Of a stretch of 64,000 nt of DNA, positions 8,345-31,014 are shown piece after piece. Source of the DNA: Parcubacteria group bacterium GW2011_GWC1_36_108. GTDB taxonomy: Bacteria; Patescibacteriota; Minisyncoccia; Moranbacterales; GWC2-37-73. The position numbers and the translations under genes were made by a program. Numbering within the stretch: the first letter of the stretch is position 1; every line of letters begins with the position of its first letter. The notes beneath the pieces were generated by a model. That model had not been told where the DNA came from. It did no database searches and saw nothing but the letters and a program-made list of their open reading frames with translations. Where the stretch lies: contig LBRD01000002.1 of the NCBI GenBank assembly GCA_000991245.1, positions 108,141 through 172,140 on the forward strand, written 5' to 3'.

Positions 8345-8345
8345 G

Positions 8346-16694: not shown

Positions 16695-19328
16695 TTACTT
16701 TAGTGAGGCTAGATGTTTTTTGAGTTCGGCTAGCTCAGCTTGTTTTTTGGCGAGCGTTTCTTTTTGCTGAGAAATTACCTGCTCGGGAGCTTTGGAAACA
16801 AATTCTTTATTACCAAGTCTTGTTGATGAACCAGTGATGAATTTTTCAAGATTAGCTATTTCTTTTTCAGCTTTTGTTCTTTCCAGCTCAACATCAATAA
16901 GGCCGACAAGCGGAATTTTTATGATGCATTCTCCCACAACTCTCTGAATGAAGCCGCCAATCAATATTTCGTTAAATTTTATAACAGAAACTCCTGCTGA
17001 TTTTTTTATGAAATCTGCGTTTTCCAAGATGACTTTTTCAGATGATGCAGAAGCTGTTTCCACCCAAAGCTCTATTTTTTTGGCGGATTCTATGTTTTTT
17101 TCTTTTCTAACATTACGTATTGTTTTGTTGAGCGATAGTACAAATGGAAAATATGAAGAGGTTTTTGCTTGCTTGCTTTCTTCATAAGCTGGCCACTTTG
17201 AAATCATTAACAATTCTTTTTCTCCTGCCAAAGTCCAAATATGTTCCGTCACGAATGGAATAAAAGGATGCCATAATTTGAGCAATTTATCCAAAACATA
17301 ACCAAGTACCTTGTCATTCTTCTCTATTTTTTGAGTTTCAATGTATCCATCTGCAAAAGAATTCCACGTGAAAGTTTTTAATAAATCAGCTGCAACAGAG
17401 ATTTGTTTGCTTTCAAATAATTGATTTGTTTTTCCAATTAATTCATTTAAGCTGTCAGTAATCCAGCGGTCTGCCTCTGAGTTTATATCTTCCTTCGAAA
17501 TCTCTTCAACCAGTTTGAAATTTTCTTGCGAGAGGCAGTAGCGCGAAATGTTCCAAAGTTTGTTGGCAAAATTTCGGAAGGTTTCAATTTTTTCTTCGTA
17601 TAGACGTGAGTTTTGACCAGGAGCAGAGTCCATAATCAAACTCATACGCAATGCATCGGCGCCAAATTTTTCAATAACAGTAAGTGGATCGATTCCATTT
17701 CCTCTGGATTTGGAAAATTTGTGACCATCTTTGTCAAGCACCAGCCCAGTGAAAAATAAATTTTTAAAGGGTATTTTTCCTGTCGTGTATAGACTCATCA
17801 TTATCATTCGCGATGACCAAAAAAACAAAAGGTCGCGACCCATTACCATTGTGTTTGTCGGATAAAACATTTCAAAATCTTTTTCTTTTGATTTTAGTGT
17901 GGTATATGCCCATTGCGAAGAGGTGAACCATGTGTCGAAAGTGTTTTCATCTTGAACCACCGCTCCGCCACAATGTGGACAGCTGTCAATTTTTTCAATG
18001 GAAATTATTGGTTCACTGCATTTTGGTTGTGAGTTGTGAGTTGTAAGTTGTGAGTTAGTGCAATACCAAACAGGGAATTGTGGACCCCACCAAATTTGGC
18101 GAGAAATGCACCAGTCGCGCATATTATCAAACCAGTCGATGAGAATTTTTTGAAAATTATTTGGAAAAATTTCAATTTCATTTTTTTTGATAGCTTCAAT
18201 TGCTTTCTTTTTCAGGGAAAAGTTTTTAGCATCAACATTGATAAACCATTGGTTTGAAGTCAAAGGTTCAATAATTGTTTTGCAACGTTCGCAAATTGAA
18301 ACGCTGTGTGTCATCTCTTCAATTTTTTCCAGTAAGTTTAATTTTTCCAAATCTTTGATGATCTCTTCTCTTGCTTCGTGCACCGTAAGACCTGCATATT
18401 TTCCGCCAAGTTCAGTGATTAAAGCTTTTTCATCAATGATTTGGATTTCCTCTAACTTGTGATCTTTGCCAATCTCCCAGTCGAGAGGATCGTGAGATGG
18501 TGTGATTTTTACAGCTCCAGTTCCAAATGACAAATCAATTCGTTTATCTGCAATAATTGGAATGATCGTATTTTGAAGTGGTAGAATAATATTTTTCCCA
18601 ACTAATTTTGAATAGCGTTTGTCTTTAGGATTAACCGCTACAGCAGTGTCACCAAGCATTGTTTCGGGACGCGTTGTTGCAACCGTAATAAAATCGGTTG
18701 AATTCTCAATCGGATATTTGATAAAATATAGTTTTCCAGGAGTTTCTTTGTGCAAAACTTCCACATCGGAAAGTGCGGTTCCACAGCGCGGGCACCAATT
18801 TATTATTCTTTTGCCTTTATAAATCAAGCCATCTTCGTGCATTTTCACAAAAGTTTCAAGTGCGGTTTTGAGCACATCTGGATCAAGAGTAAATTTTTCT
18901 CGTGACCAATCAGCAGAGATTCCAATTTTCTTTTCTTGGCTGCGCATATAATCTGCACGATCAATACAAAAGGCATAAGTTTTTTTGTAAAAATCTTCGC
19001 GTCCAATTTCTTGGCGAGAAAGTCCTTTTTCAGCTTGCAATTTTTTTTCAAAAACAACCTGCGTCTGAATTCCAGCATGATCTTTCCCAGGGAGAAGTAA
19101 GGTTTTTTTGCCATTCATACGAGCCCAGCGACCAAAAATATCCATCACAGTGTATCCACTGGCATGCCCAATGTGCAGTTCGCCATTAGCATTTGGCGGC
19201 GGAAGAATATTGCAATATGTTTCTTTTGAATCTATATTGTCAGGATTAAAATATCCGCTTTTCTCCCAGCGAGCATAAATTTCATTCTCAATTTTTTGTG
19301 GCTCGTATATTTTTGGAAGTTCTTTCAT
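16695..19328 (-). CDS. valS: Valyl-tRNA synthetase, carrying an in-frame heptamer-repeat insertion
   Basis: PPPNANGELHIGHA (HIGH), GKDHAGIQTQ, KFSKS (KMSKS), C-terminal coiled coil; 877 aa. Confidence 0.85.
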   Translation of the reverse strand: MKELPKIYEPQKIENEIYARWEKSGYFNPDNIDSKETYCNILPPPNANGELHIGHASGYTVMDIFGRWARMNGKKTLLLPGKDHAGIQTQVVFEKKLQAEKGLSRQEIGREDFYKKTYAFCIDRADYMRSQEKKIGISADWSREKFTLDPDVLKTALETFVKMHEDGLIYKGKRIINWCPRCGTALSDVEVLHKETPGKLYFIKYPIENSTDFITVATTRPETMLGDTAVAVNPKDKRYSKLVGKNIILPLQNTIIPIIADKRIDLSFGTGAVKITPSHDPLDWEIGKDHKLEEIQIIDEKALITELGGKYAGLTVHEAREEIIKDLEKLNLLEKIEEMTHSVSICERCKTIIEPLTSNQWFINVDAKNFSLKKKAIEAIKKNEIEIFPNNFQKILIDWFDNMRDWCISRQIWWGPQFPVWYCTNSQLTTHNSQPKCSEPIISIEKIDSCPHCGGAVVQDENTFDTWFTSSQWAYTTLKSKEKDFEMFYPTNTMVMGRDLLFFWSSRMIMMSLYTTGKIPFKNLFFTGLVLDKDGHKFSKSRGNGIDPLTVIEKFGADALRMSLIMDSAPGQNSRLYEEKIETFRNFANKLWNISRYCLSQENFKLVEEISKEDINSEADRWITDSLNELIGKTNQLFESKQISVAADLLKTFTWNSFADGYIETQKIEKNDKVLGYVLDKLLKLWHPFIPFVTEHIWTLAGEKELLMISKWPAYEESKQAKTSSYFPFVLSLNKTIRNVRKEKNIESAKKIELWVETASASSEKVILENADFIKKSAGVSVIKFNEILIGGFIQRVVGECIIKIPLVGLIDVELERTKAEKEIANLEKFITGSSTRLGNKEFVSKAPEQVISQQKETLAKKQAELAELKKHLASLK
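18025..18060. repeat. Heptamer tandem repeat (GTTGTGA)n inside the valS coding sequence, in frame
   Basis: ggttgtgagttgtgagttgtaagttgtgagttagtg; translated on the minus strand as NSQLTTHNSQP. Confidence 0.6.
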
Positions 19329-19821: not shown

Positions 19822-21045
19822 CTATTTCATTTTCAAGTTGGCATTTGGCTGAATTGTTTTCCAACCATCAAGTGCTTTTTTCTTTTGTGCTTCTGTCATT
19901 TTTTCCCAGCGAAAAGCTGCTGCAGCTGCAATCATAGCGGCGTTGTCGCCAGTCAGGTTTATAGGTGGTAGGTGGTAGGTTGTAGTTGGTAGGGATTTAG
20001 AAATAGCTTTGCCGAGTTGCTCGCGAAGTTCAGTATTAGCACTTACGCCACCTGCCAATAAAATTGTTTTTGGCTTGTAAATCTCGGCAGCCTTAATAGT
20101 TTTTGAAACAAGTACATCAATACAAGCCTGCTGAAATTCATGACAGATTTCAGGAATCAGTAACTCGTAACTCGTAACTGGTAACTTTTCTTGTAATTTT
20201 TTTGTTTCATATAACACAGCAGTCTTGAGTCCAGAGAAAGAAAAATTAAAATTCTTCTTATGCAGCATCGGGCGAGGGAAAATCAGCTTTTTAGGCATTA
20301 GCTTCTTAGCTTCATCGAATTCATAATTTTGTTTGGAAGTTGAGTTATTGGATTTTGTTTGGAAATTGGAAATTGGAAATTGGAAATTCGCAGCTTGCTG
20401 CGCAACCTTCGGTCCTCCCGGATAGCCGATGCCGAGAATGCGTGCAACTTTGTCAAAAGCTTCACCAACTGCATCATCCACGGTTTGTCCGATTATTTCA
20501 TATTGCAAATGATCCTTCATCAAAACGAGCTGAGTATGACCACCGCTGACAACAAGCGCCAAAATTGGAAATTCAATGTAGGTTCTAGGAATTAGGTTGT
20601 AGGAATTAGGTTTTTGTTTTTTATTTGCTAAATCCTCATTCCTAACTCCTAATTCCTGAGTTTCGATAAAGTTGGCATATATGTGTCCTTCGATGTGGTG
20701 AATCCCAATCAGGGGCTTTTCCCAGAGATAGGAAAGGGTTTTGGCATAGTTAACCCCTACTAGAAGCGCAGGAATAAGCCCAGGACCGCTTGTGACACTG
20801 ATTGCATCCAACTGGCTTGGCGTTATTTGCGCTTCTTCCAGGGCCATTTTTAGAAGCTTGGGAAAGTTTTTTAAGTGTTCTCTGGCAGCAAGATTTGGCA
20901 CAACACCGCCCCATTTGGCGTGTAACTTTACTTGAGATGAAACTTGATTTGTAAGAATCTCAAGCCCCTTTTTTGAACTACGCAAAATAGCGATAGCTGT
21001 TTCATCGCAGGATGTTTCTATAGAAAGTATTAGGGTATTTGACAT
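19822..21045 (-). CDS. tsaD: tRNA N6-adenosine threonylcarbamoyltransferase TsaD (Kae1/YgjD), with five in-frame repeat-derived insertions
   Basis: LILSIETSCDETAIAI, HIEGH, VVSGGHTQL, LAGGVSAN; start taken at MSNTL (21045). About 407 aa versus about 340 typical. Confidence 0.85.
   Translation of the reverse strand: MSNTLILSIETSCDETAIAILRSSKKGLEILTNQVSSQVKLHAKWGGVVPNLAAREHLKNFPKLLKMALEEAQITPSQLDAISVTSGPGLIPALLVGVNYAKTLSYLWEKPLIGIHHIEGHIYANFIETQELGVRNEDLANKKQKPNSYNLIPRTYIEFPILALVVSGGHTQLVLMKDHLQYEIIGQTVDDAVGEAFDKVARILGIGYPGGPKVAQQAANFQFPISNFQTKSNNSTSKQNYEFDEAKKLMPKKLIFPRPMLHKKNFNFSFSGLKTAVLYETKKLQEKLPVTSYELLIPEICHEFQQACIDVLVSKTIKAAEIYKPKTILLAGGVSANTELREQLGKAISKSLPTTTYHLPPINLTGDNAAMIAAAAAFRWEKMTEAQKKKALDGWKTIQPNANLKMK
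19964..19994. repeat. Heptamer tandem repeat (GGTGGTA)n inside tsaD, in frame
   Basis: ggtggtaggtggtaggttgtagttggtaggg; encodes LPTTTYHLPP. Confidence 0.6.
20158..20185. repeat. Heptamer tandem repeat (GTAACTC)n inside tsaD, in frame
   Basis: cagtaactcgtaactcgtaactggtaac; encodes LPVTSYELL. Confidence 0.6.
20292..20384. repeat. Composite repeat insertion inside tsaD (TTAGGCATTAGCTTCTTAG unit plus (GGAAATT)n)
   Basis: ttaggcattagcttcttag (cf. 52698 and 53564) ... ggaaattggaaattggaaatt; translated as ANFQFPISNFQTKSNNSTSKQNYEFDEAKKLMPKKLIF. Confidence 0.6.
20581..20659. repeat. Full palindromic TAGGAATTAGG-family element inserted in frame inside tsaD
   Basis: ggttctaggaattaggttgtaggaattagg...cattcctaactcctaattcctgag; translated as ELGVRNEDLANKKQKPNSYNLIP. 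Confidence 0.65.
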
Positions 21046-21150
21046 AAATATGATATTATTGTAGTATTCAACTTCCAATAAATGGCCTTGGGACACAATA
21101 ATTTTCAGACGTTTCGCGTAGTAGTAATAATCGTTAAGCGATTTTACCAT

Positions 21151-21918
21151 ATGGCAACGAAAATGAAAAGTCTAACCAAAGGGTCAGATTCTCGCAAGAC
21201 TTTGCCAGAATCAAGTACGCAAGCTAACCTTTTTCGTCGTGAAACAGATTTACCCTGGAAGTCCTCTGCTAATCAATCATTGTTAGAAAAAAGTCCAATA
21301 CAACAAAGCGATTCTATTTTTTTCAGAAGAAGTTCTGATTTGGATCGCTTAAAGAATCTGGAGGATAGTGAACTTATCATTATTATACATACGCAAAATA
21401 GGGAGGCCTACAAAGAACTTTTTGCTCGTTATCAAAAAAAACTTTTTGTTTACATTTATCACTTGGTTGGTAACAGAGATGAAACAGAAGATATTTTGCA
21501 AAATGTTTTTTCTAAGACTTATAAAAGCATTGATAATTTTGACACCACCCGAAAATTTTCTTCCTGGATATATCGCATCGCACACAATGAGTCAGTGAAT
21601 TTTTTGAAGCGAAAAAGCAAGAGATATACAGTTTCTTGGGATGATATTTCAACAAGCAAGGACAAATTGGACACAGCAACAAATGAAGAACGACCTGAAG
21701 AAAAAATGGAGCATCAAGAAATCGTGAAAGAAATAGACTATGCTTTGAAAAAAATTCCTGCAAGGTATCAAAAAGTTTTGCAGATGCGATATTTCAATGA
21801 ATATTCTTACGAAGAAATTGGAAAAATCCTCAAAAAACCCGTTAACACAGTCGGAACACTCATCAATAGAGCCAAAAAGAAGCTGCTGGAGGTGGTGCAG
21901 GAAGAGGGAAAGAAATAA
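21151..21918 (+). CDS. ECF-type RNA polymerase sigma factor (sigma-70 regions 2 and 4) with N-terminal extension
   Basis: Region 2 DILQNVFSKTYKSIDNFD...WIYRIAHNESVNFLKRK; region 4 YQKVLQMRYFNEYSYEEIGKILKKPVNTVGTLINRAKKKL. ORF track starts at 21082; ATG 21151 preferred. Confidence 0.75.
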   Translation: MATKMKSLTKGSDSRKTLPESSTQANLFRRETDLPWKSSANQSLLEKSPIQQSDSIFFRRSSDLDRLKNLEDSELIIIIHTQNREAYKELFARYQKKLFVYIYHLVGNRDETEDILQNVFSKTYKSIDNFDTTRKFSSWIYRIAHNESVNFLKRKSKRYTVSWDDISTSKDKLDTATNEERPEEKMEHQEIVKEIDYALKKIPARYQKVLQMRYFNEYSYEEIGKILKKPVNTVGTLINRAKKKLLEVVQEEGKK

Positions 21919-21947
21919 AAATCTCCGCATTAAAGCGGAGATTTTTG
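21917..21947 (+). terminator. Rho-independent terminator after the sigma factor gene
   Basis: aaaatctccgc-attaaa-gcggagatttt plus T-run. Confidence 0.7.
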
Positions 21948-22036
21948 TTTAGTTTTGAAAATTTTTTAAAAATAAAAACAGCCTCACTCGATTTCTCGAC
22001 GTGAGGCTGGATAATTTTCAACTATTCATTTTATTC

Positions 22037-22816
22037 TTAATCTTCAAGGATAAATGCCAAATCTGCTACGTAGGAAGCCTTTAAAAGCGCTTCCAAGCAA
22101 TAATCAAGCTCAGCTTGGTTATCCTCCTTTTCCAGTGCATAGCCGAACCATTTTCTGGCTTCGGCTATATATCCATCAACAAGGAGCTGCAACATTTCCT
22201 CTGCTGAAGAGTCAATGTCTTCGAAACTCGCATCGGCTTTTTCCAATGCTTGTATAGAGAAGTTAATGTTATTTTCATTGTTATCGCTTCTGTTACGCGC
22301 ATATCCCAACCAGAGCTTTGCTTCGGCGACGTAGCCGTCAGTGAGAAGTTCTTGAAGTTCTTCTTCAGAAGTTCCGATTGAAGCTGGTGTTGCGTCAGCT
22401 TTTGCAAGTGCTTCGTGGACATACTTGATATTGTGTTTGTTGTCAGCCAGGCGATTGCGCGCATGCTCCAACCAACGCTTGGCTTCGGCAAGGTAACCTT
22501 TCGTTAAAAGCTGTGAAATCTCTTTTTCGGAAGTCCCAATGAATTTAAGAGTCACATCAGCTTTTTCTACGGCTTCTCGGATATATCTGATAGCCGCCGT
22601 GTTGTCCCCAAAAGGTTTCCTGGCTATTTCCAACCACCGTTTTGCTTCTGATACATCTTGTTGCTGTTTAACTTCAATGTCATTGCTGACTGAAGTTATT
22701 GTGATGTCGGTGTTATTGTCGGCAAATGCCGGACAAGTGAAAAGCAGACTTGCGAAAACGATTGTGATGTTAAGGATCTGTTTCATGTTGTATCTCCTCT
22801 TGAGTTTATTTTCCAT
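22037..22816 (-). CDS. Secreted protein with about four tandem 45-aa repeats
   Basis: Signal peptide ...LFTCPAFA; repeated unit AEAKRWLEHARNR.ADN..NI.Y..EAL.KADA....IGTSEEE.QELLTDGY. Confidence 0.6.
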   Translation of the reverse strand: MENKLKRRYNMKQILNITIVFASLLFTCPAFADNNTDITITSVSNDIEVKQQQDVSEAKRWLEIARKPFGDNTAAIRYIREAVEKADVTLKFIGTSEKEISQLLTKGYLAEAKRWLEHARNRLADNKHNIKYVHEALAKADATPASIGTSEEELQELLTDGYVAEAKLWLGYARNRSDNNENNINFSIQALEKADASFEDIDSSAEEMLQLLVDGYIAEARKWFGYALEKEDNQAELDYCLEALLKASYVADLAFILED

Positions 22817-23068
22817 TGGACAGTTCCAATTGGATAAATCTTACAACTGTCCATATTAGCATATTTTTATGTAACTGTCAATGGTAATATTTAAAAAATG
22901 CCTTTAGAAAGCCTTTTCTTGGTGATTGTAATGCCTAAGTGCGCGTCGCAAGTTCGTCGACACTCACTTGTTCCTTGTCCGCGGCAGAGCTGAATGCTCC
23001 TATGGTCGCATTCATCTACGCACGCTGCGTTTACTTTCTGCTGAAAGCCAATTTGTTTCACTTCTGCC

Positions 23069-23088
23069 GGTCCGATTCCCCTTGGCGC
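23069..23088 (+). repeat. Inverted 20-nt copy of the tRNA-Glu 3' end (positions about 53-72), candidate att/recombination core
   Basis: GGTCCGATTCCCCTTGGCGC is identical to the complement of 28171-28190 inside tRNA-Glu; followed by CA and a terminator hairpin. Confidence 0.7.
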
Positions 23089-23096
23089 CAATACGC

Positions 23097-23124
23097 AAAA
23101 ACTCCAGATAAATCTGGAGTTTTT
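23097..23124 (+). terminator. Rho-independent terminator directly after the displaced tRNA-Glu 3' fragment
   Basis: aaaaactccaga-taaa-tctggagttttt perfect hairpin with flanking A/T runs. Confidence 0.7.
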
Positions 23125-23334
23125 GTACTTGGTAGCCCAAGTTAGAAATTCTTGGAACCAGCTTATTAGTGAGCTTAATGAGTGGGCTATGTTTAGGAGA
23201 CGGGAAATGTGTGCTGAAAATATGGCTCAGATTGGCGTATAACATTTCTTACCGTATCTGCCATTAAAGAATGAAACCATATATAAACCCCGTCTGACAT
23301 ACACAGGCGGGGTAATTAAATGGGATAAATTTTT

Positions 23335-23817
23335 TTACGTGTGTAATTTATGTATTAAACCCGTATCGAGAAGACGAATAGACATTGCTTGCTCACTGAC
23401 TTCGAACTTTTTTGCGAGCTGGTTAATTCCAATTTTTCCCGAGTGCTCCTTAATTTCTTTCTCAATAAATTGTTTTGGCATTAGTAATTCTGATGCGAAT
23501 TTATTTGCCTCCTTCTCCTTGTTTATTGGCTTATCAAATCTATCATCAACAATTGTATGGTCATCGTGTCCCATTAAAAAATGTCCTAGCTCGTGTGCAA
23601 GTGTAAAACGTTGTCTTACCTTGGGATGGTTTTGATTAACGCCAATAAATGTCATTCCTTCCTTGTGCATTATCATCCCGGAAACATTGTCAGGAAAATC
23701 TGGGTATGGAACAACTTGTATGTTGAATAATGCAGCCACTTCTTCAAGGGGCACAGGCAACTTTTCTAGTCCAATTTTAGCAATAATTGTATTAACTTTT
23801 TCTGAAATACCTTCCAT
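23335..23817 (-). CDS. ImmA/IrrE-family zinc metallopeptidase (anti-repressor protease type)
   Basis: HEXXH motif AHELGHFLMGH; DUF955-like; immediately downstream of the XRE regulator. Confidence 0.75.
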   Translation of the reverse strand: MEGISEKVNTIIAKIGLEKLPVPLEEVAALFNIQVVPYPDFPDNVSGMIMHKEGMTFIGVNQNHPKVRQRFTLAHELGHFLMGHDDHTIVDDRFDKPINKEKEANKFASELLMPKQFIEKEIKEHSGKIGINQLAKKFEVSEQAMSIRLLDTGLIHKLHT

Positions 23818-24134
23818 TATTTTTTGTTTATGTTTGACTTTGCATACTTAAAAAAATCAGCCGTTAGTTTATCGTAGTTGCACTCAGGGTCAAGACTGCT
23901 TGCATCCGCCCTAAATTGAACCATTGTGCTGTCATTAGAAAAATAATTTTCTCCAAGGTTGAATGTTTGAATTAGTTTATGCAGTGATTCGCCACTTAAG
24001 ACGCGGGCGCCCTTCTCAACGTACGAAATATAGGACTCAGAAAGACCTAGGGTTGTCCCTAGTTCGTGCTGTTTAAGTCCTTTTTCTTTTCTAAGTTGTC
24101 TGATTTTTTTACCTACAGAAGATTCTATATTCAT
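23817..24134 (-). CDS. XRE-family helix-turn-helix transcriptional regulator (CI/ImmR-like)
   Basis: KKIRQLRKEKGLKQHELGTTLGLSESYISYVEKG, a canonical HTH_XRE. Confidence 0.8.
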   Translation of the reverse strand: MNIESSVGKKIRQLRKEKGLKQHELGTTLGLSESYISYVEKGARVLSGESLHKLIQTFNLGENYFSNDSTMVQFRADASSLDPECNYDKLTADFFKYAKSNINKK

Positions 24135-24166
24135 ATGTACTTACATTTTTACACACTGTTAAACTA

Positions 24167-24181
24167 CTGTCAAGTCTTGAC
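24167..24181. promoter_or_regulatory. 15-bp perfect palindrome TGTCAAGTCTTGACA upstream of the XRE repressor gene (candidate operator)
   Basis: tgtcaag-t-cttgaca lies 33 bp upstream of the XRE start in the divergent control region. Confidence 0.5.
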
Positions 24182-24285
24182 ACTACCCATACAATTTAAA
24201 TGCCCTTATAGAGCCATTAGGAGCTAGCGGTGTACTTATTGATTTAAACGTTTTTGTTCTAGAATAAGGCAATATTTTAAAATTC

Positions 24286-24313
24286 TTGACAAACTTGACC
24301 AAGCTACTATAAT
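24286..24313 (+). promoter_or_regulatory. Consensus sigma-70-type promoter TTGACA-16-TATAAT driving 24416..24946
   Basis: ttgacaaacttgaccaagctactataat. Confidence 0.55.
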
Positions 24314-24415
24314 GAGGGGTAGGTCGAAACTTTTCCCAGTCCTTATTTTTCTCCTTATTAAGCCACTGGATATAATTTTAAAAAAGAGAACACAATTCGG
24401 GGGAAAATTGTAAAT

Positions 24416-24946
24416 ATGGCAATGAAATCCAAGTATGAAAAAGAAAAACTAAAAGCAAAAAATAAATATTTTTCCATTGGCAAGGTTTTTAACCCTGCTT
24501 TTGCAAAAGATATATATTTCAATGCTCAAGGCTTCAACCACCTTGTTTACGGTAAAGGTAATATGATGAGGAGTAAAGAGCAGCAGTTAGCCAGATTCAG
24601 GCTTTTAGATAAAGCAGTTGGGCTCATATCAAGCAATGAAGTGTTTAAGTTGAGCAAAACAGCAGACAGAGAAAAGCTTAAAAAAGGTATAAAGAAAATT
24701 AGCATTGAAAAACAATGGTGCTGTGACGGTGAGAAAAATGGCTCTGGTTTCAGGGTTATTTTGAGACAAAGGGACAATGGCAATATTCATTTTTTGAGTG
24801 TCATACCTCTTGGAAAAACTCAGACAGCATATTATCCATTCGCTTCATTGTTAGCTGCAATCCCAAATTTGCTATTTAAACGGCCTGAGCCGGCTCTTGA
24901 AACCGTAGAAATTAGTGAAGTTGAGACTGAAAATGAACCTGAATAA
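24416..24946 (+). CDS. Hypothetical protein (element cargo)
   Basis: 176 aa, lysine-rich N-terminus, acidic C-terminus; no motif recognised; followed by a terminator at about 24951-24979. Confidence 0.45.
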   Translation: MAMKSKYEKEKLKAKNKYFSIGKVFNPAFAKDIYFNAQGFNHLVYGKGNMMRSKEQQLARFRLLDKAVGLISSNEVFKLSKTADREKLKKGIKKISIEKQWCCDGEKNGSGFRVILRQRDNGNIHFLSVIPLGKTQTAYYPFASLLAAIPNLLFKRPEPALETVEISEVETENEPE

Positions 24947-25166
24947 ATATAAAAAAAAGCCGCCTAAAGCGGTTTTTTTCTATGCTTGCCTTCAATTAAA
25001 CTTGAAAAAGGCTTTCGCCTCACAAGCACATTCCTATAGTATCCCATAGTTAGTACTCTGTCAACAGAATTATATTCCCAAAGAGACATCTCGACAGAGT
25101 TGTTTTTTTATTGATTTTATTGTAAATTACATATGCAACGTCCAATTTAATAGGCTCTGTCTTTCT

Positions 25167-25688
25167 ATGGATAGAAGTAAGGTTGTGCTCGAAAATGGCA
25201 ATCTTACTAAAACAATTTGGCATAACCTGCTTAATTGGGCGTTGCAACCAGTAAGGTTGCCTTTTTTTATATCCAAAATTGCGACTTTGGTGGGGTATTT
25301 TTCTAATAATTTTTCAATAAACTATATGAAAGAACTATCCATTGTCGAAAAAATAACAAGTGATTTTTCTCAGGGCGTAAGCATATCAGTAATACTATTC
25401 ATAATTGGCGCGGCGTTTATTTTTAGCAGCCCACTGATAGGATTATTTTTATTAGTATCCGCATTTTTCATATACTCAAAAACATTAAGTAAATGGGGTC
25501 GAATTGAAAAGATGACCTCTAGCGTCTGGAGTGGAGTTAAGACGGCAGCAGTATTATTAGTGGTTGGAATGGTGCCCGGGATAATTCTCGAACTTATTTT
25601 TAAACCATTAGCACTGGGGTATTTCTTCTTTGTGATTGCAGCTGTTTATATTTTTTCTAAATCAATAACAAGGCGATGGAAAAAGTAA
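25167..25688 (+). CDS. Hypothetical membrane protein (element cargo)
   Basis: 173 aa with several hydrophobic segments. Confidence 0.45.
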   Translation: MDRSKVVLENGNLTKTIWHNLLNWALQPVRLPFFISKIATLVGYFSNNFSINYMKELSIVEKITSDFSQGVSISVILFIIGAAFIFSSPLIGLFLLVSAFFIYSKTLSKWGRIEKMTSSVWSGVKTAAVLLVVGMVPGIILELIFKPLALGYFFFVIAAVYIFSKSITRRWKK

Positions 25689-25945
25689 AGAAAGAATCGT
25701 TAGATGAAAAAGTTAAAAAGTACATCCTTATTTTTATGGCTGGTATGTTTGAGTTGGTGGCTTTAGATTTTTTTGCTGGAGCTAACGGCATCATTATTAT
25801 CAAGGATGACGGTCCACAATGGCCTTTCTATTTACTTGCTACAGTAGCGGGCATATTTCTATACATAGCCTTTAGGACCGGGGTTAAGCAAGGTTATGAG
25901 GATGGATTTACTGATGGAGAAAAATACAAGAATATTACATATTGA
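25676..25945 (+). CDS. Hypothetical small membrane protein (element cargo)
   Basis: 89 aa, two hydrophobic segments, overlaps the previous ORF. Confidence 0.4.
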   Translation: MEKVKKESLDEKVKKYILIFMAGMFELVALDFFAGANGIIIIKDDGPQWPFYLLATVAGIFLYIAFRTGVKQGYEDGFTDGEKYKNITY

Positions 25946-26502
25946 ATGCACTTACAATATGTGCCCGTCTGACAAGGGACACCGTCTGACATTATATTGC
26001 AAATCGTTTGTCAGCTTGTATTTATTTAATGCACGAAAATCAATCCATCAAAGGCTTATTCCAAAAGAGTTAGCTTCTTTTTTTTATCAGATTGTTATTG
26101 TTCTACTGTCTGACACAAACATTCCAATAAAAGCACACAAACAGTCGGTACTTGCTAGCCGGCACTGTTGCTGAGATTTATTTTTTTATTCAAGTTGAAT
26201 TGATTTCAAAAATGTGCAGACTTTCGAGGGGGTGGTAGGGGTGGAGCTAAACTTTTGGTCTTGGCACACGTGTTGTATACCGTTTCTGGCGATTATGATT
26301 TTGGAATTCAACTGTCTGACATTGACAAGTGGCAATTTTTCTGCTAAGTTAATGATAACAATTTAAGAGTAGTTAGCTTCACTTTCTAGACACTCACCCT
26401 CAAAAGTCACCCTCTAGAGTACTCAAGCCTGAAAATGTTTTTTCGAAAATATTCTCAGACTCGATTACTCTTTTTTGTTTCTTGTTTTTAACTCGAAACA
26501 AA

Positions 26503-26655
26503 TGTTTACTACTGAGAAGTGTTGTCGAATTGAGCCATCATTGAAGAATCTTTCCGAAGAAGAGGTTATTTTGGTTGAGGAAAATTATCGTGAAATGGTG
26601 AGACTTGCAATAGAAAGCTTCAAGAAAAATAAAAAGGGTTCCAAAAATCCCTGAT
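26503..26655 (+). CDS. Small ORF (50 aa) immediately upstream of the recombinase; possible accessory protein or directionality factor
   Basis: MFTTEKCCRIEPSLKNLSEEEVILVEENYREMVRLAIESFKKNKKGSKNP; below the ORF-track size cutoff; position suggestive only. Confidence 0.25.
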
Positions 26656-26694
26656 GGGTATTGTTGAATATTTACACGAGCGTACTATATAAAT

Positions 26695-28206
26695 ATGGAA
26701 ACAGAAAAAACAGGCATCATCTATTGCAGAGTATCCTCAAAAGACCAAGTTGAAGGTACTAGCTTGGGCAGCCAAGAAAGGTTTTGCAAAGAATATGCAG
26801 AACGTAATGGTATTAGGATTTTAAAAATATACATTGAGCTTGGTGAATCAGCAAAAACAGCTAACCGAACAGAATTTAATAAGGCCTTAGCATTTTGTAG
26901 TGACAAAAAGAATAATGTCACTTTTTTTGTTGTTTATAAGCTAGATAGGTTTGCACGAAATCAAGAAGACCACGTTATGGTTCGAGCTTTATTAAAAAAG
27001 GCGGGTACTGATTTACGTTCAGTTACGGAAACAATAGACGAATCGCCAGTTGGGAAAGCGATGGAGGGTATGATTTCTGTTTTTGCGGAATTAGACAATA
27101 ATATGAGAACGGAAAGAACTAAGCAGGGTATGCTGGAACGCTTAAAACAAGGCTTCTGGAACTGGCAAGCACCCCTAGGCTACTATCGACCTTACAAGGG
27201 TTCAAATATTGTACCTGACCCTCAAAAGAGCGGGTTTATACGACTTGGTTTTGAAGAATATTCCAAAGGCACATACACTTATGAAAAAATTGCACTGTTT
27301 CTGTCAGACAGAGGTTTAAGGACAAAACAAAACAAAAACCCATCAACCGCCCTTATGCAAAAAATACTTACTAATCCTATTTATTATGGGTATATTGATG
27401 TTTGGGGTGGACATAAAGGAGCCTTCGAACCTATTATTTCAGAAAACTTGTTTAGAAAGTGCCAACCTGACTATATGAAGTCGGCGCACGCAGCACCAAG
27501 GTCAGCAAACAACCCCTTATTTCCCTTGAGAAAATTAGTTATTTGCGATGAATGTGGGGCTTCACTCACTGGCAGTACATCAAGAAATAGGCACGGTTCA
27601 AAATATCCATACTATCATCACCAGCACGCTGGTTGTAAAAAAACAAGGTCAATCCCAAAAGAATCATTCGAACAGCAATTTGTTGAATATCTGGACAGTA
27701 TCTCTCCCGGTATTAAATATGAAAAACTATTCAAAGCTATCGTTTTGGATGAATGGCAAAATGGCTACAAAAAGATAGACAACGAAAATGCACAAATAAG
27801 AAGAGACATAACTTCATTAGAAGCTGAACGCCAAAAAGTCTTCGATTTTCATCGTGCAGGAAAGTATACCGATGATGACCTATTTGAGCAAAAAAAACTA
27901 ATCGAGGATAGGATAAGTCAAAAGCACGCCCTCATACAAGACAAGAGATATGAGGAGTTTGAAATGAATGAGGTGCTTGAATATTGTTTTTCCTATGTTC
28001 GAACCTCTGCAAAATCGTGGATTGAGGCTGATTATGCAACAAAACTAAGTTTTCAAAAGTTAATCTTTGCAGATAGCATAAAATATGATGGTGAGAAATT
28101 TGGAACCCCTGATTTAAGGCTCCTATATACGATAAATCAGCACTCGCGTGCTGATAAATCTTCTTTGGTAGCGCCAAGGGGAATCGGACCCCTGTTACCA
28201 GGATGA
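26695..28206 (+). CDS. Large serine recombinase (resolvase/invertase catalytic domain, recombinase domain, zinc ribbon, coiled coil)
   Basis: IYCRVSSKDQ (catalytic Ser), YKLDRFARN, zinc ribbon CDECGASL...C; 503 aa; last 41 nt overlap tRNA-Glu antisense. Confidence 0.85.
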   Translation: METEKTGIIYCRVSSKDQVEGTSLGSQERFCKEYAERNGIRILKIYIELGESAKTANRTEFNKALAFCSDKKNNVTFFVVYKLDRFARNQEDHVMVRALLKKAGTDLRSVTETIDESPVGKAMEGMISVFAELDNNMRTERTKQGMLERLKQGFWNWQAPLGYYRPYKGSNIVPDPQKSGFIRLGFEEYSKGTYTYEKIALFLSDRGLRTKQNKNPSTALMQKILTNPIYYGYIDVWGGHKGAFEPIISENLFRKCQPDYMKSAHAAPRSANNPLFPLRKLVICDECGASLTGSTSRNRHGSKYPYYHHQHAGCKKTRSIPKESFEQQFVEYLDSISPGIKYEKLFKAIVLDEWQNGYKKIDNENAQIRRDITSLEAERQKVFDFHRAGKYTDDDLFEQKKLIEDRISQKHALIQDKRYEEFEMNEVLEYCFSYVRTSAKSWIEADYATKLSFQKLIFADSIKYDGEKFGTPDLRLLYTINQHSRADKSSLVAPRGIGPLLPG

Positions 28207-28240
28207 AAACCTGGTGTCCTAACCACTAGACGATGGCGCC
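28166..28240 (-). tRNA. tRNA-Glu (anticodon TTC) with encoded CCA and G1-U72 wobble
   Basis: GGCGCCATCGTCTAGTGGTTAGGACACCAGGTTTTCATCCTGGTAACAGGGGTCCGATTCCCCTTGGCGCTACCA. Confidence 0.85.
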
Positions 28241-28341
28241 ATATGTAAAATTTCAATAACACAGTAACAGTGGACAGTTTAACATAAAGAAAAAAATAAA
28301 TCAATAGTTGAGTTATTTCTTGTATACGATATAATATAGAA

Positions 28342-28947
28342 ATGGAAGAAGCAGGACAACACATTTTTGAATTTTTGAGACAGTATGGCTATTGGGCGAT
28401 GCTGCCTTTAATGATTATTGAAGGACCGGTTGTAACAATCATCGCAGCTATGCTGGCTTCATTGGGAGCTTTCGCTTGGCCGGTGGTTTTATTGTTTTCA
28501 ATTTTAGGGGATATTATTGGCGATGTGCTTTTGTATGGAGCGGGATATAAATGGGGAATGGGCTTTACAAGCGGTTTTGGTAAATATATGGGAATCACTG
28601 AAACATTGGTTTTAAAAATGGAAAAATATTTTGAAAAACATGGCGGCAAGACTATTTTTGCTGTAAAATCTACGACTGGACTTTGCTGGGCAACCTTTGC
28701 AGCAGCCGGAATTGTGAAAATGGATTTCAAAAAATTTGTGAAATACTCAGTTCTTGGCGGCTTTGTTTGGAGCGGAACCTTGGTTGCAATGGGATATTTC
28801 TATGGTTATTTGTGGAAAGAAATGAAACAATATATCAGCTGGATTGGCTGGATCATTGCTGCTGTGGCAATCGTTTCGTATGTTGGCATAACTTTGTATA
28901 AAAATCTCCAAGCCAAAAAACTTCTAAAAGAGAATGATAATGCTTAG
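28342..28947 (+). CDS. DedA / SNARE-associated (VTT domain) family membrane protein
   Basis: 201 aa, polytopic, DedA-like N-terminal pattern YGYWAMLPLMIIEGPVV. Confidence 0.7.
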   Translation: MEEAGQHIFEFLRQYGYWAMLPLMIIEGPVVTIIAAMLASLGAFAWPVVLLFSILGDIIGDVLLYGAGYKWGMGFTSGFGKYMGITETLVLKMEKYFEKHGGKTIFAVKSTTGLCWATFAAAGIVKMDFKKFVKYSVLGGFVWSGTLVAMGYFYGYLWKEMKQYISWIGWIIAAVAIVSYVGITLYKNLQAKKLLKENDNA

Positions 28948-29016
28948 ATAAAATTGAAAAAAGCCGTCCCTAATTTGGGGCGGCTTTTGTTTTGCCAATT
29001 TGTTTGGCAAAATATT

Positions 29017-29880
29017 CTATTTGATTAGATTGAAAATAAATTTGTCTATTTCTTTGGCAGTCAGGTCGCTGCCGTGCATTGTTGTGTTGTGCCATAGCGG
29101 CAGGGGCACATAAATAATGCCATCGCAGTCAAGTGCGTGCCTGAATAGGGAATCTTTTTCCCCATAAATGCATTGCACCATCTTAATGTTCAGAACCTTT
29201 TTTAGCGATGTTAATGCTTTGTCATCACACAGTTTTTCCCACTCACATAAGCGTTGTTTTATACGATCAGATGTAAATGGAGATTTTTCTTTAGGCAGAA
29301 ATTTTTCGAGGACTTCCCATTTGGGATTTCCGGAAAATGCCCATTTATGACCAATTCCATTGGCGATAAATTTCAGACCAAGTTCCAACATTGATCTTTT
29401 TTGAAAACCTATGGGATCAAGAAGTGTTAAGCTTGATATTGTTCGAGGGCTCATAACGGCAAGTTCTGTGATTACGGCAGCGCCCATTGAATGTCCAATC
29501 CAATGAATGTTCCTACCTGGAAGCACTTTGTTTGCCCAGATATGAAGTGCAACAGCATCCCTTTTGAAATTATTTCTGGCGAGCATAGGAGGGTTGTTTG
29601 AGTTCCCATACCCTAACAGCGAAACCATTGTGACTTGGTAACCAAGTTTCACAAGTTCGTAGCCAAGAAGAGAACTGCCAGTCCAACCAGATCCAAATCC
29701 GCAGACTAACACGATTACATCAATAAATGAAATAGGGTCACCATTGCTTATAGTGCAGTAGTTCATTAGGTAAGAATTTAAATTTATTGGTATTTTGACG
29801 TGCTCACTTTTTTGTAGTTGCGGTCCAATAACTTCATTTATGAATCGTTGCTCATCTTGTGAAAGTTCTTTTTTAGCCAT
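29017..29880 (-). CDS. Alpha/beta hydrolase (lipase/esterase type)
   Basis: Nucleophile elbow IGHSMGAAV (GHSMG); 287 aa. Confidence 0.7.
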   Translation of the reverse strand: MAKKELSQDEQRFINEVIGPQLQKSEHVKIPINLNSYLMNYCTISNGDPISFIDVIVLVCGFGSGWTGSSLLGYELVKLGYQVTMVSLLGYGNSNNPPMLARNNFKRDAVALHIWANKVLPGRNIHWIGHSMGAAVITELAVMSPRTISSLTLLDPIGFQKRSMLELGLKFIANGIGHKWAFSGNPKWEVLEKFLPKEKSPFTSDRIKQRLCEWEKLCDDKALTSLKKVLNIKMVQCIYGEKDSLFRHALDCDGIIYVPLPLWHNTTMHGSDLTAKEIDKFIFNLIK

Positions 29881-30015
29881 GGCAGGCCTCCTCGTAGATA
29901 TTTTTTGAGATATTCAATTGTTAATGAATATAAAAGTATACTGTAAATGTAGAAAATGTCAAGGTTTTTTCTTGCAAAAAGGGTGTAAAAGAGGTAGGCT
30001 TAGTCATAGAAATAT

Positions 30016-30858
30016 ATGGTAAAAAAGCTTGTAAAATTTGCAGAAAAAGCTCTTGGAAAGGCAAAAAACATTCTCTTTGCTGACCCGAAGCTTTTATATG
30101 AAGAAGAGCGGAATCTTGTGAATCAGCCGTTTTTTTTCATGGGTAGTAATGGCAAAGGAATTTTGCTTGTGCATGGTTGGACATCAACGCCATATGAAGT
30201 GCGAAGATTAGGAAAATATCTGAATGAAAACGGTTACACAGTCTTGGGGATTCAACTGACCGGGCATGGAACTGTACCAAAAGATTTGGAAGGCGTGACA
30301 AGGAAAGATTGGATTATGGATATTGAGAAGGGTTATGCGGAGTTAAAAAAAACTTGCGAAAAAGTTTACATCGGGGGAACTTCAATTGGTGCAAACTTGG
30401 CGATGGAGTTTGCCAAAAAAGAAAAAAATATTGCAGGACTGATATTGATGGCAACTCCATATAGATTGAGATATGAAGAGATTGTTGTGTCTTTTGCAAA
30501 AACATTAAAAATGTTTAAGAAATATCACAAAAAATATTATCCTCCGACTTTTGGTGTTTCAACTACCATTACAAGATTGATTTCATACCAGTCGTATCCT
30601 ATTTCTAGTTCGCTAGAAACTTTTTCTTTGATTAAAGATTCAAGAAAAAATCTGGAGCTGATAACTCAGCCTATTCTTATTATGCAATCAACGCATGATC
30701 ATATTGTTCAAAAAAATAGCTTGGAGAATATTTATAGAAAAGTTGGGTCTAAAATAAAAAAGAAAAAATATATTGAAAAAGCTTATCACACTTTTATTTC
30801 CGATATTAAAAACCAGCACGTATTCTTGGATATATTGGAGTTTCTTGATGCTAATTGA
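30016..30858 (+). CDS. Alpha/beta hydrolase / esterase
   Basis: GGTSIGANLA (G-x-S-x-G); 280 aa. Confidence 0.65.
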   Translation: MVKKLVKFAEKALGKAKNILFADPKLLYEEERNLVNQPFFFMGSNGKGILLVHGWTSTPYEVRRLGKYLNENGYTVLGIQLTGHGTVPKDLEGVTRKDWIMDIEKGYAELKKTCEKVYIGGTSIGANLAMEFAKKEKNIAGLILMATPYRLRYEEIVVSFAKTLKMFKKYHKKYYPPTFGVSTTITRLISYQSYPISSSLETFSLIKDSRKNLELITQPILIMQSTHDHIVQKNSLENIYRKVGSKIKKKKYIEKAYHTFISDIKNQHVFLDILEFLDAN

Positions 30859-31014
30859 ATTTAATGATGAATTAAGTTTTTATAATCTTAGCTTGTCCCA
30901 AATTTTTAATTTTTAATTTACAATTTTTAATCAAATCTAAATTTTTGAATTTTTAAATTAAAACATTGAAAATTCATTTCAAATTTCGAATTTCAAATTA
31001 AAAATTTTGGAAAT

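Follow-up and report, generated by a model that had tools for sequence, protein, structure and literature searches.

An integrative island at the extreme 3' end of tRNA-Glu(UUC) in Candidatus Moranbacteria, probably inserted by its own large serine recombinase, with attP inside the integrase reading frame

Introduction

Large serine integrases such as those of phiC31, Bxb1, A118 and TP901-1 and SPbeta SprA share a resolvase catalytic region, a recombinase region, a zinc ribbon and a coiled coil. They recombine conservatively between short att sites with a short common core, and the integrase gene adjoins attP. The ACCA tip of a tRNA gene is an unusual target for a large serine recombinase (LSR). 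In mycobacteriophages with integration-dependent immunity, attP reportedly lies inside the repressor gene, and integration is said to remove a C-terminal degradation tag. The phiRSM-type filamentous phages of Ralstonia reportedly integrate at the 3' end of a tRNA-Ser gene by a small serine recombinase. In archaeal integrases of the SSV1 type, attP is located within the int ORF, a tRNA gene is the target and integration alters the gene product (PMC7253208, PMC8371274). Adjoining HTH repressors and M78 metallopeptidases are found in ImmR/ImmA of ICEBs1 and in CapH/CapP, where CapP cuts CapH upon DNA damage (bioRxiv 10.1101/2022.04.27.489752).

The window (the whole 64,000-nt stretch analysed) carries an LSR island whose host is Candidatus Moranbacteria GW2011_GWC2_37_73, a bacterium of the candidate phyla radiation. 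Its integrase has the domains of the large serine integrases, and SPbeta YokA/SprA and the TP901-1 integrase are among the solved structures nearest to it by sequence. Unlike the large serine integrases of phages, those of the window's family target the tRNA ACCA tip from an attP inside the integrase ORF and have an extra helical C-terminal region after the coiled coil; the elements measure 3.8–9 kb, lack phage genes and are nearly confined to Patescibacteria. SSV1-type integrases share the site in their own frame, the tRNA target and the changed product, as an analogy and not as membership: they are tyrosine recombinases, and integration leaves their gene in two inactive parts, whereas the serine enzyme of the window loses its last 34 residues and keeps its recognised domains. 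As in the mycobacteriophages, a coding-region attP swaps the C-terminus of a key regulatory protein, and the protein isoform therefore reports the integration state; in the phages the repressor gene is altered and the integrase is a tyrosine enzyme, whereas here the gene altered is that of the serine integrase, in which no degradation tag was evident. Set beside phiRSM by description, the island likewise uses a serine recombinase with a tRNA gene 3' end as attB, but the phiRSM enzyme is of the small resolvase/invertase type and belongs to an inovirus. The repressor-metallopeptidase pair of the window is divergent from the operon it putatively controls, as in ICEBs1 and CapH/CapP; this operon ends in the integrase, whereas CapH/CapP defence operons carry a CBASS system.

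Element boundaries and empty site

The target and the element were delimited as follows:

28166–28240, minus strand: tRNA-Glu(UUC), integration target, intact after insertion (ARAGORN; Rfam tRNA, 63 bits)
23137–28172: integrative island, 5,036 bp, from junction mapping of the window against the empty site L007
23129–23136, plus strand: attL copy of the 8-bp repeat TTGGTAGC, with the B arm (tRNA trailer and terminator) on its left and the P' arm on its right
28165–28172, plus strand: attR copy of TTGGTAGC, antisense to tRNA positions 70–76 plus 1, encoding integrase L491-V492-A493
23095–23125, no strand: bidirectional terminator-like hairpin (AAAAACTCCAGAT-AA-ATCTGGAGTTTTT, perfect), part of the attB B arm

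Locus L007, an element-free copy from the same strain, reads sigma70, a 249-aa gene, the X' module (described below), terminator, tRNA-Glu and DedA. On its two sides it matches the window at 100% identity, over 2.7 and 10.8 kb. Identity from the left ends at 23136 and starts again at 28165, with an overlap of 8 bp. The resulting direct repeat TTGGTAGC on both sides of the insertion is the antisense of the tRNA-Glu 3' end GC-U72-A73-CCA-A. Insertion was conservative and the tRNA was exactly regenerated. It is highly probable that 23137–28172 is an integrative island that its own LSR inserted at the extreme 3' end of tRNA-Glu(UUC). An integrative LSR element at this tRNA, one of the options of the initial annotation, was borne out by L007, the kind of uninterrupted tRNA-Glu followed by its terminator for which that annotation had suggested a search in related DNA. 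It had placed the left boundary at 23069, but 23069–23136 is host DNA by the same comparison and the insertion starts at 23137. Nor did the reported GC of about 40% against about 33% in the flanks hold: the element has 36.5% GC and its 10-kb flanks have 37.7% and 36.1%, so that there is no composition contrast. L007 may represent the ancestral state and not one left by excision.

The tRNA-Glu has a G1-U72 pair and an encoded CCA, the latter present in none of the five other tRNA genes in the window. This had been taken as the mark of an element-supplied end, and the distal copy of a 20-nt tRNA segment (23069–23088) as the native one. Beyond the crossover, the 3' nucleotides of the present tRNA are indeed physically element-derived, and CA and then the perfect hairpin come after the distal copy. 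However, L007, which holds both 20-nt copies, has a tRNA-Glu of the same sequence as the window's, ending in GCGCTACCA, and so ends the tRNA-Glu of a related genome lacking both the element and the downstream module. Because of these two ends, G1-U72 and CCA are native and the distal 20-mer is no displaced native tRNA end.

By comparison of junction repeats among relatives (5–13 bp, all over the acceptor end and ACCA), strand exchange was placed within tRNA positions ~71–74. As crossover dinucleotide, TA, AG and GT each fit most junctions, GT misfitting two loci (L010 and L057). Integrase codons for LVA or LVT covary with tRNA ends GCTACCA or GTCACCA.

Inverted 20-nt repeat and host X' module

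The 20-mer GGTCCGATTCCCCTTGGCGC was found in exactly two copies, at 23069–23088 (plus strand) and 28171–28190 (minus strand), with no match in 100 shuffles, as first annotated. The distal copy belongs to the following feature:

22935–23090, minus strand: host X' module outside the element, ~155 nt, GC 54%, structured (covariance model, 179 bits), present in L007

If the inverted tRNA cores were recombination sites, the 5.1-kb interval between them would have been inverted, or be actively invertible, by the serine recombinase, as the initial annotation suggested. The recombinase-bearing interval is bracketed by the exact 20-nt inverted repeat, the distal copy plus CA would form a G1-C72 acceptor stem, and after the hypothetical inversion the integrase frame would continue without a stop for 66 codons, reading into 23091–22891. 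We give this reading almost no credence. Both copies are present in the element-free locus, 47 bp apart, and the real junctions are 8-bp direct repeats, displaced rightward from the distal copy by 48 bp. All six element copies fetched were 100% identical to the window and in a single orientation, and the predicted inversion junction (CTTCTGCC-GGTCCGATTCCCCTTGGCGC-TACCAAAGAAG) gave no match in the metagenome collection. In relatives, the integrase was convergent on the tRNA in 58/58 tRNA-associated loci, none with an inverted copy of the tRNA 3' part, which among the 59 tRNA-associated members (58 fetched loci and the window) was unique to the window. The 66-codon extension had no family match, and its protein sequence is not conserved in a comparison of the window with L010. 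At position 72, where the distal copy has C, two of three L010 units have T, a difference of one base.

The inverted copy is better placed in the X' module. This module has no ORF, and the distal 20-mer, antisense to tRNA-Glu positions 52–71, forms its 5' arm. In L007 the terminator hairpin lies between the tRNA 3' end and this module, and tRNA 3' part, hairpin and distal copy form one ~107-bp quasi-palindrome. Template switching can perfect quasi-palindromes, and the 20-mer might thus be a chance or replication-slippage extension of the terminator palindrome with no further meaning. Such an origin is very unlikely: the 20-mer is contiguous with a recurring sequence of ~135 nt, and X' units number 16 across 9 Moranbacteria genomes, where they lie downstream of genes for three tRNA species (tRNA-Glu, tRNA-Gly and tRNA-Arg). 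The 5' arm fits the local tRNA each time, the helices are strongly covarying, and scores of 36–179 bits argue against an alignment artefact. The inverted 20-nt copy belongs to an older, separate chromosomal module and not to the element.

Integrase and split reading frame

The integrase is encoded in two separated pieces:

26695–28206, plus strand: large serine recombinase, integrated form, 503 aa (Pfam Resolvase, Recombinase, Zn_ribbon_recom; PHROG integrase, 5e-83)
23137–23242, plus strand: severed integrase 3' end, 34 codons (QVRNSWNQLISELNEWAMFRRREMCAENMAQIGV) and stop, in frame with 26695–28172 once circularised

The overlap of tRNA-Glu with the 503-aa ORF, as originally described (ARAGORN, Rfam, ORF 26695–28206), comprises the final 41 nt of the ORF. 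Residues 1–493 come from the element, and the last 10 (PRGIGPLLPG) are antisense translation of tRNA-Glu. The circular-form ORF rebuilt in silico encodes 527 aa, and a tail HMM matched at 23138–23203 (E=1.8e-10). Among homologues, forms of ~503 aa end in tRNA-antisense peptides (..LVAPRGIEPLLPG) and those of 523–555 aa in the motif xVxxxWNQLIxELxEW..F. By this reconstruction attP lies inside the integrase ORF, where integration swaps a conserved 34-aa C-terminal amphipathic helix for 10 tRNA-antisense residues; because of this position, the integrase C-terminus depends on the integration state. In the integrated state the helix-coding piece is 5 kb off, at the opposite end of the element. An AlphaFold model of the full-length relative P0002 has catalytic, recombinase and zinc-ribbon/coiled-coil regions and a C-terminal helical region.

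In 32 other loci a severed tail (tail-HMM match at E<=1e-3) lies on the strand of the integrase, 3.8–9.2 kb upstream of it, giving 33 delimited elements with the window. Tail entropy at codon positions 1/2/3 was 1.0/0.86/1.42 (33 elements), the third position being the most variable, and the tail codons evolve in the manner of coding sequence.

In the cycle that we propose, the XRE/ImmA (CapH/CapP-like) switch would repress the rightward operon (three or four small ORFs, the small partner ORF and the integrase) until a stress signal. After induction the 503-aa form, perhaps with the small partner, would excise the element, and the restored 527-aa form would perform integration. The severed tails of 33 integrated copies remain constrained at the protein level, and this implies that the elements regularly become circular again.

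Alternatively, truncation of the integrase might strand the insertion, in the 'suicidal' manner of SSV-type elements, the polymorphism then recording one recent integration and no cycling. In the SSV family, integration divides and inactivates integrases that have attP within their ORF (PMC7253208). The integrated enzyme here lacks the conserved C-terminal helix, and the attP junction of the window's element, whose circular form the initial annotation had proposed to seek, was not found in the JGI metagenome collection. Stranding is nevertheless unlikely. Only 34 of 527 residues are exchanged, with all catalytic and DNA-binding domains kept, and the first ~493 codons are one unbroken tblastn match in nearly all of 80 species-level loci. 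Constraint on the severed tails also speaks against it, as do the filled and empty sites in otherwise identical DNA and the free circle of a 60%-identical relative (4,614 bp), assembled as the same circle in at least 5 sequencing runs; its contigs, with ends overlapping by 30 nt, are rotated permutations and contain an intact 527-aa ORF.

Family of relatives and cargo

Species-representative genomes yielded at least 571 relatives, almost all of them from Patescibacteria MAGs, and the island family is large and apparently undescribed. Of 80 loci fetched, 58 lose homology to the recombinase at residue ~493, where a convergent tRNA has its 3' end (51 Glu, 3 Lys, 2 Arg and 2 Ala). The elements (3.8–9 kb) have in common the integrase and an upstream ORF of ~50–60 aa, and are otherwise highly variable in cargo. 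Relatives carry SNF2 and ResIII helicases, a LexA-methylase fusion, a Schlafen/AlbA_2 domain protein, prolyl-tRNA synthetase, cysteine synthase, an RHS-repeat protein and an HNH nuclease. The window's element contains:

23335–23817, minus strand: ImmA/IrrE-type M78 metallopeptidase (CapP-like), candidate anti-repressor protease (Pfam PF06114, 2e-23; PHROG metallo-protease; PADLOC capP, 2e-33)
23817–24134, minus strand: XRE-family HTH repressor (CapH/ImmR-like; Pfam HTH_3, 9e-12; PADLOC capH and HTH models)
24135–24415, no strand: divergent control region with promoters and operator-like palindrome
24416–24946, plus strand: cargo ORF, 176 aa (Pfam: sub-threshold LPD3 match only)
25167–25945, plus strand: two cargo ORFs of 173 and 89 aa that overlap; their translations contain long hydrophobic stretches
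26475–26654, plus strand: small conserved partner ORF, ~50 aa from the ATG at 26502, directly upstream of the integrase

The ImmA/XRE module, consensus promoter and operator palindrome of the initial annotation were all present. The rightward promoter is a perfect TTGACA-16-TATAAT (24286–24313), the leftward promoter lies at 24173–24145, an operator-like palindrome (TACTGTCAAG/CTTGACACTA) at 24165–24185, and CTTGACA is repeated across both -35 boxes. The 176-aa ORF had no PHROG or PADLOC match and no homologue among the 32 other delimited elements. The 173-aa and 89-aa ORFs had no family match in Pfam, PHROG or PADLOC and probably encode small membrane proteins. A 92-aa ORF at 25896–26174 is doubtful.

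ImmA/XRE modules are typical of temperate phages, ICEs and satellites, and the element might be a phage satellite or prophage remnant whose switch answers a helper phage and which spreads in hijacked phage particles. The 79%-identical integrase P0002 has as its neighbour, on a contig of 4.3 kb, a gene encoding a GP3_package (small-terminase-like) domain, and the next-closest IMG/VR integrases (at most 34% identity) are in viral contigs of 38–53 kb. We regard this as unlikely: no PHROG structural, packaging or replication match was obtained in the window's element, the viral collection (IMG/VR) held no close family member, and the heterogeneous cargo of relatives makes a general island the better fit.

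The small partner ORF and the integrase are the only genes common to all 33 delimited elements. The partner had no Pfam family and is a candidate recombination directionality or accessory factor; L089 and the circular relative also have a short ORF at its position. This small ORF (26475/26502–26654) was overlooked in the initial annotation and is conserved in every relative examined.

Insertion boundaries and empty site

Filled and empty versions of the locus were retrieved with the exact DedA/VTT protein encoded immediately right of the tRNA-Glu(UUC) gene, and this lookup returned contigs from one organism, some with the element and some without. The window's DedA is 100% identical to the one encoded by Candidatus Moranbacteria GW2011_GWC2_37_73. 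The empty type comprised L007 and four similar contigs, and the filled type L005 and 14 similar contigs, plus L006. The island is thereby a presence/absence polymorphism among close relatives with 100% identical flanks (for L007, which lacks the element, over 2.7 kb leftward and 10.8 kb rightward). Identity between window and L007 runs up to 23136 from the left and resumes from 28165, with 8 bp (TTGGTAGC) common to both ends. The filled site thus differs from the empty one by a 5,036-bp insertion (23137-28172) with an 8-bp direct repeat and is otherwise unchanged. The repeat is the antisense of the tRNA tip (GC-U72-A73-CCA-A), and the tRNA-Glu sequence is the same in filled and empty sites, being left intact by insertion at its 3' end. 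Insertion at the tRNA tip is therefore conservative. Read from the left, L007 has the order ...CTTCTGCC-GGTCCGATTCCCCTTGGCGC-CAATACGC-[hairpin]-GTACTTGGTA-GCGCCAAGGGGAATCGGACC-... The attachment sequences, attP being a reconstruction, are as follows.

attB: GAGTTTTTGTACTTGGTAGCGCCAAGGGGAAT
attP: GATAAATCTTCTTTGGTAGCCCAAGTTAGAAATTC

The attP junction of the window's element (AATCTTCTTTGGTAGCCCAAGTTAGAAAT) had no match in JGI metagenome contigs, so the circular form of this copy is not demonstrated. Sequencing runs containing the strain include SRR6488074 and SRR1658467, as well as those underlying ERZ27254734, ERZ28564033 and JGI 3300025010. An apparent filled variant without an integrase gene (L006) was rejected as a gene-calling gap, its DNA being 100% identical to the window. 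A further filled scaffold of 5,138 bp (L004) corresponds to window 23082-28219, with only ~50 nt of flank per side; an assembly graph would be expected to break in this way, at the two junctions, if the sample contained filled alleles side by side with empty ones or with a circle. Within the integrase coding sequence, 9 nt before the att core, 28136-28155 forms a perfect 8-bp hairpin (ATCAGCAC-TCGC-GTGCTGAT); it may belong to the P arm or serve as a terminator in the integrated state.

Inverted 20-mer at the tRNA

The initial annotation had described a serine-recombinase element at tRNA-Glu bounded by inverted 20-nt tRNA cores, taken as attachment or inversion sites; the integrative element stands, and the role given to the inverted cores does not. 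The 20-mer GGTCCGATTCCCCTTGGCGC does occur exactly twice in the window (0 expected by chance), at 23069-23088 (+) and at 28171-28190 (-), the latter being positions 52-71 of tRNA-Glu(UUC), 28166-28240 (-). The distal copy is indeed followed by CA and a perfect hairpin (23095-23125), as had been reported, and the 503-aa ORF (26695-28206; Resolvase, Recombinase and zinc-ribbon domains) overlaps the tRNA by 41 nt on the opposite strand. Both copies of the 20-mer are present in the element-free L007, however, 47 bp apart, which refutes their reading as att cores or inversion sites. The insertion end lies 48 bp inside the left copy, so the inverted repeats are not the ends of a switch segment. Fetched copies were all in a single orientation, and the predicted inversion junction had no match in the assemblies searched, a collection with limited power for this question. 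Neither the repeat sites nor the two orientations that characterise Hin/Gin/Cin-type switches or shufflons were found.

The tRNA ends in GGCGC-T-A-CCA, with G1-U72 and an encoded CCA as first noted; the five other tRNA genes in the window lack an encoded CCA. This end had been attributed to the element, yet the tRNA of L007 already ends in GCGCTACCA, as does the tRNA-Glu of a related genome (L112) that carries neither the island nor the downstream module described below. G1-U72 and CCA thus belong to the native gene, and the distal copy is not its displaced end. The "perfect G1-C72" of that copy comes down to one base at tRNA position 72 (TTG-GCGCC in the window unit versus TAGCGCC in two units of another Moranbacteria locus, L010), a difference by which the shared core was lost and the perfect pair created. 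A contrast in GC content likewise disappeared on recalculation, with 36.5% in the element and 37.7% and 36.1% in its flanks.

Integrase and attP within its reading frame

The N-terminal resolvase catalytic domain was matched at residues 8-153 (PF00239, 6e-32), with Y10 and the R12, V13 and S14 of the R-V-S serine motif invariant across 25 homologues. PF07508 and PF13408 were also matched, giving the recombinase domain and the zinc ribbon with coiled coil. In the AlphaFold model of P0002, a natural full-length relative (mean pLDDT 82.5), residues 282-309 form beta strands and 340-418 long helices, and a PDB profile search aligned SPbeta SprA with query residues 139-415. By all sequence-level criteria the enzyme is predicted to be a large serine integrase.

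When the element ends are joined, the integrase frame stays open and encodes 527 aa; 23137-23239 supplies the last 34 residues (QVRNSWNQLISELNEWAMF...) and 23240-23242 the stop codon. The attP site thus lies in the integrase ORF, and integration state sets the protein form, the integrated and excised states encoding enzymes of 503 and 527 aa that differ in a conserved terminal helix. A database search with the 527-aa reconstruction returned >1,100 homologues, most of them of ~503 aa and ending in translated antisense of a tRNA T-arm (..LVAPRGIEPLLPG, ..LVTLPGFEPGFQA), and a minority of 523-555 aa with the C-terminal motif xVxxxWNQLIxELxEW..F. As in the window, the tail-coding piece was found upstream of the integrase on the same strand in 32 other loci, at a distance of 3.8-9.2 kb. 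Across the 33 integrated copies the severed tail evolves as coding sequence does, being most variable at third codon positions and conserving the residues W, N, L, E, L, W, F and G. In the P0002 model the crossover falls between helix 488-497 and the terminal helix 499-522, of which the prediction is confident only to ~residue 510. Integration thus swaps the conserved terminal helix for 10 tRNA-encoded residues and keeps all recognised domains. An original course of the integrase into a 66-codon ORF (23091-22891) was rejected, since that ORF matches no family and is not conserved as a protein in L010, and since true full-length homologues end in the 23137-23242 tail.

Relatives, targets and cargo

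The window provides a precisely delimited example with its empty site and leads to at least 571 relatives with defined attL and attR, nearly all in Patescibacteria MAGs and the closest in Candidatus Moranbacteria. One genome per species was scanned and 80 loci were fetched. Of the 80, 58 lose homology to the integrase at residue ~493, exactly where a convergent tRNA has its 3' end; the targets are tRNA-Glu (UUC or CUC) in 51, tRNA-Lys in three, and tRNA-Arg and tRNA-Ala in two each. The integrase codons (for L-V-A or L-V-T) vary together with the tRNA end (GCTACCA or GTCACCA). Junction repeats in the 33 delimited elements measure 5-13 bp and always cover the acceptor end and ACCA, and what they have in common confines strand exchange to tRNA positions ~71-74, though not to a single dinucleotide.

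Besides the integrase, the sole gene shared by all 33 elements is an ORF of ~50-60 aa directly upstream of it (window 26475/26502-26654), which matches no Pfam family and is a candidate accessory or recombination directionality factor. The remaining cargo varies between elements. Relatives carry SNF2 and ResIII helicases, a HerA-like ATPase, a Schlafen/AlbA_2 domain protein, a LexA-methylase fusion, a prolyl-tRNA synthetase, a cysteine-synthase-like enzyme, an RHS-repeat protein and an HNH nuclease. The window's cargo ORFs (176, 173, 89 and 92 aa) and its small partner ORF had no match in Pfam, PHROGs or PADLOC. These islands appear to be a main vehicle of variable cargo, including helicases, methylases, a tRNA synthetase and surface proteins, in very small genomes.

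For a relative at 60% identity, at least five sequencing runs gave one and the same 4,614-bp circle (L090-L094), assembled as rotated permutations with 30-nt overlaps and 0 mismatches; its 527-aa ORF is intact. Twenty further short contigs had no terminal overlap in the same circularity test. The circle also encodes a 452-aa secreted protein with proline/threonine-rich linkers, a DUF2335 membrane protein and a short ORF in the small-partner position; its attP core is TTGGCAGCCC, implying a tRNA end ...GGGCTGCCA.

In a Paceibacter MAG (L075) the integrase adjoins a bare ~25-nt tRNA-Glu 3' fragment (TTGGTAGCCCCAAGGGGAATCGAAACC; 9476-9513), with an intact tRNA-Glu 7.6 kb further on (17134-17208), as if two elements had accumulated in tandem at the same tRNA. 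In L109 an island left-end remnant (core, hairpin and a piece of integrase tail) lies at 6309-6524 without an integrase. The interval from the sigma-70 gene to tRNA-Glu (window 21919-23136) is a variable hot spot; it measures 48 bp in L112 (2990-3037) and holds 3-6 kb of unrelated small ORFs elsewhere (L109 4991-8026, L111 5355-8776, L113 2829-8753), and five related loci lack, at that position, any homologue of the 249-aa gene present in the window (22037-22786).

Regulation, proposed life cycle and known systems

As initially annotated, the island contains an ImmA-like peptidase, an XRE repressor, a perfect sigma-70 promoter and an operator-like palindrome. The XRE and M78 peptidase genes are adjacent and lie next to a divergently transcribed operon, the arrangement of ImmR/ImmA (CapH/CapP) pairs; divergent promoters and an operator accompany this repressor/protease pair. 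The repressor would hold off the rightward operon, which consists of the 176-aa ORF, two small membrane proteins, the small partner ORF and the integrase. A stress signal would then cause the ImmA/CapP-like protease to lift repression, by putative proteolysis; CapP/CapH respond to DNA damage (bioRxiv 10.1101/2022.04.27.489752). Since the integrated copy can yield no form other than the 503-aa one, excision, if it takes place at all, would have to be the work of that form. The resulting circle would encode the 527-aa form, and this form would integrate. An attP within the ORF could in this way offer a serine integrase a simple, testable means to "know" which reaction to run, and it is conceivable, though rather doubtful, that the terminal helix itself biases directionality.

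Alternatively, the element could be stranded and no longer mobile, by analogy with the "suicidal" integrases of SSV type (PMC7253208). This reading is weakened by the first ~493 codons, which are intact in nearly all loci, by the severed tails, which are still under constraint, and by the relative present as a free circle.

SSV-type archaeal elements resemble the island in having the recombination site within the integrase reading frame. Their enzyme is a tyrosine recombinase whose gene is split into two inactive parts, whereas the island encodes a serine enzyme that exchanges only its last 34 residues out of 527. Functionally, the island integrase also resembles mycobacteriophage repressors, whose C-terminus switches with integration. 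Unlike both cases, the island makes its swap in a serine integrase and spares the catalytic machinery. To our knowledge, attP within an integrase ORF has been reported only for archaeal tyrosine integrases, in which the gene is inactivated. PHROG matches were restricted to the repressor, protease and integrase, which does not make a prophage or satellite, and the viral collection IMG/VR held no close relative, only distant integrases at <=34% identity. The element thus qualifies as a tRNA-targeting integrative island with an empty site, and not as an invertible switch, prophage or satellite. In the candidate phyla radiation, mobile elements have been little explored. No serine-integrase island family targeting tRNA-Glu in this radiation was described in the full-text literature searched, an absence that is not proof of novelty. 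For the relatives attP and attB can be reconstructed, and the set is directly useful for mining serine integrases as genome-engineering tools.

Structured units downstream of tRNA genes

The distal 20-mer forms the 5' end (minus strand) of a non-coding unit of ~155 nt with 54% GC, outside the island. A covariance model built from four copies found 16 units in nine Moranbacteria genomes. Positions of units and arrays are listed below.

Unit and array coordinates
Window: 22935-23090, minus strand
L010: 2945-3100, 3117-3253 and 9475-9631
L109: 7832-7987 and 13740-14225
L112: 7910-8468
L114: 1366-1515 and 14727-14869
L116: 6580-6710
L117: 17044-17196
L118: 2370-2513

Units or arrays begin 17-54 nt downstream of a tRNA gene (Glu, Gly(UCC) or Arg(UCG)) on the same strand, singly or in tandem (<=3). 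The 5' arm of most copies matches the T-arm and acceptor strand of the local tRNA exactly, in antisense, over 8-20 nt. Several blocks end in a 12-17-nt sense copy of the local tRNA 3' end followed by a second terminator, as insertion with target duplication would leave. Three helices were supported by an 11-copy alignment, with 96.6% of cells paired and changes on both sides in 12 of 24 pairs (34 cells); 0 of 500 shuffles reached the observed values, and slid controls gave 32-41% pairing. The count of 12 G-U versus 4 A-C cells favours the strand running in the same direction as the tRNA.

Rfam searches of window 20000-31000 and of the L112 array returned tRNA only, the module matching no family, and its motif had no match in the viral collection. 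Its interpretation as a tRNA-Glu pseudogene with an insertion was rejected, the body being unlike tRNA positions 1-51 and local scores no better than those of shuffles. A family-wide role as an island feature was likewise rejected, the module being missing from the 79 other scan loci except L010.

In L010 (Candidatus Moranbacteria GWC2_37_8) the island lies at a unit's arm and not at the tRNA, and the integrase ORF runs across TTGGTA|GCGCCAAGGGGAATCGGACC into the unit (583 aa; ORF 7977-9728, unit 9473-9632). The tRNA-Glu of this locus (2853-2927) ends in GGCGCGAGC and lacks the TACCA core. The arm can therefore act as an attB half-site.

The modules could be miniature mobile elements, structured RNAs or fossil element ends, and they are a candidate new class of RNA or DNA element, separate from the island. 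A more specific and quite improbable proposal defines ORF-less insertion modules of ~230-250 bp (terminator hairpin, tRNA-antisense arm and ~135-nt structured scaffold) that would home to tRNA 3' ends by complementarity through a target-matched arm, represented here by the distal 20-mer, in a guide-like manner directed by RNA or ssDNA structure and with an enzyme supplied in trans, and would create secondary att sites for the island.

Position 55 of the tRNA T-loop is almost universally U (pseudouridine 55). The T-loop of the window's tRNA-Glu reads TCCGATT (28181-28187), with C at this position, as it does elsewhere in this Moranbacteria clade (L009-L011, L109 and L111-L113); the tRNA-Ala of L065 likewise has C55.
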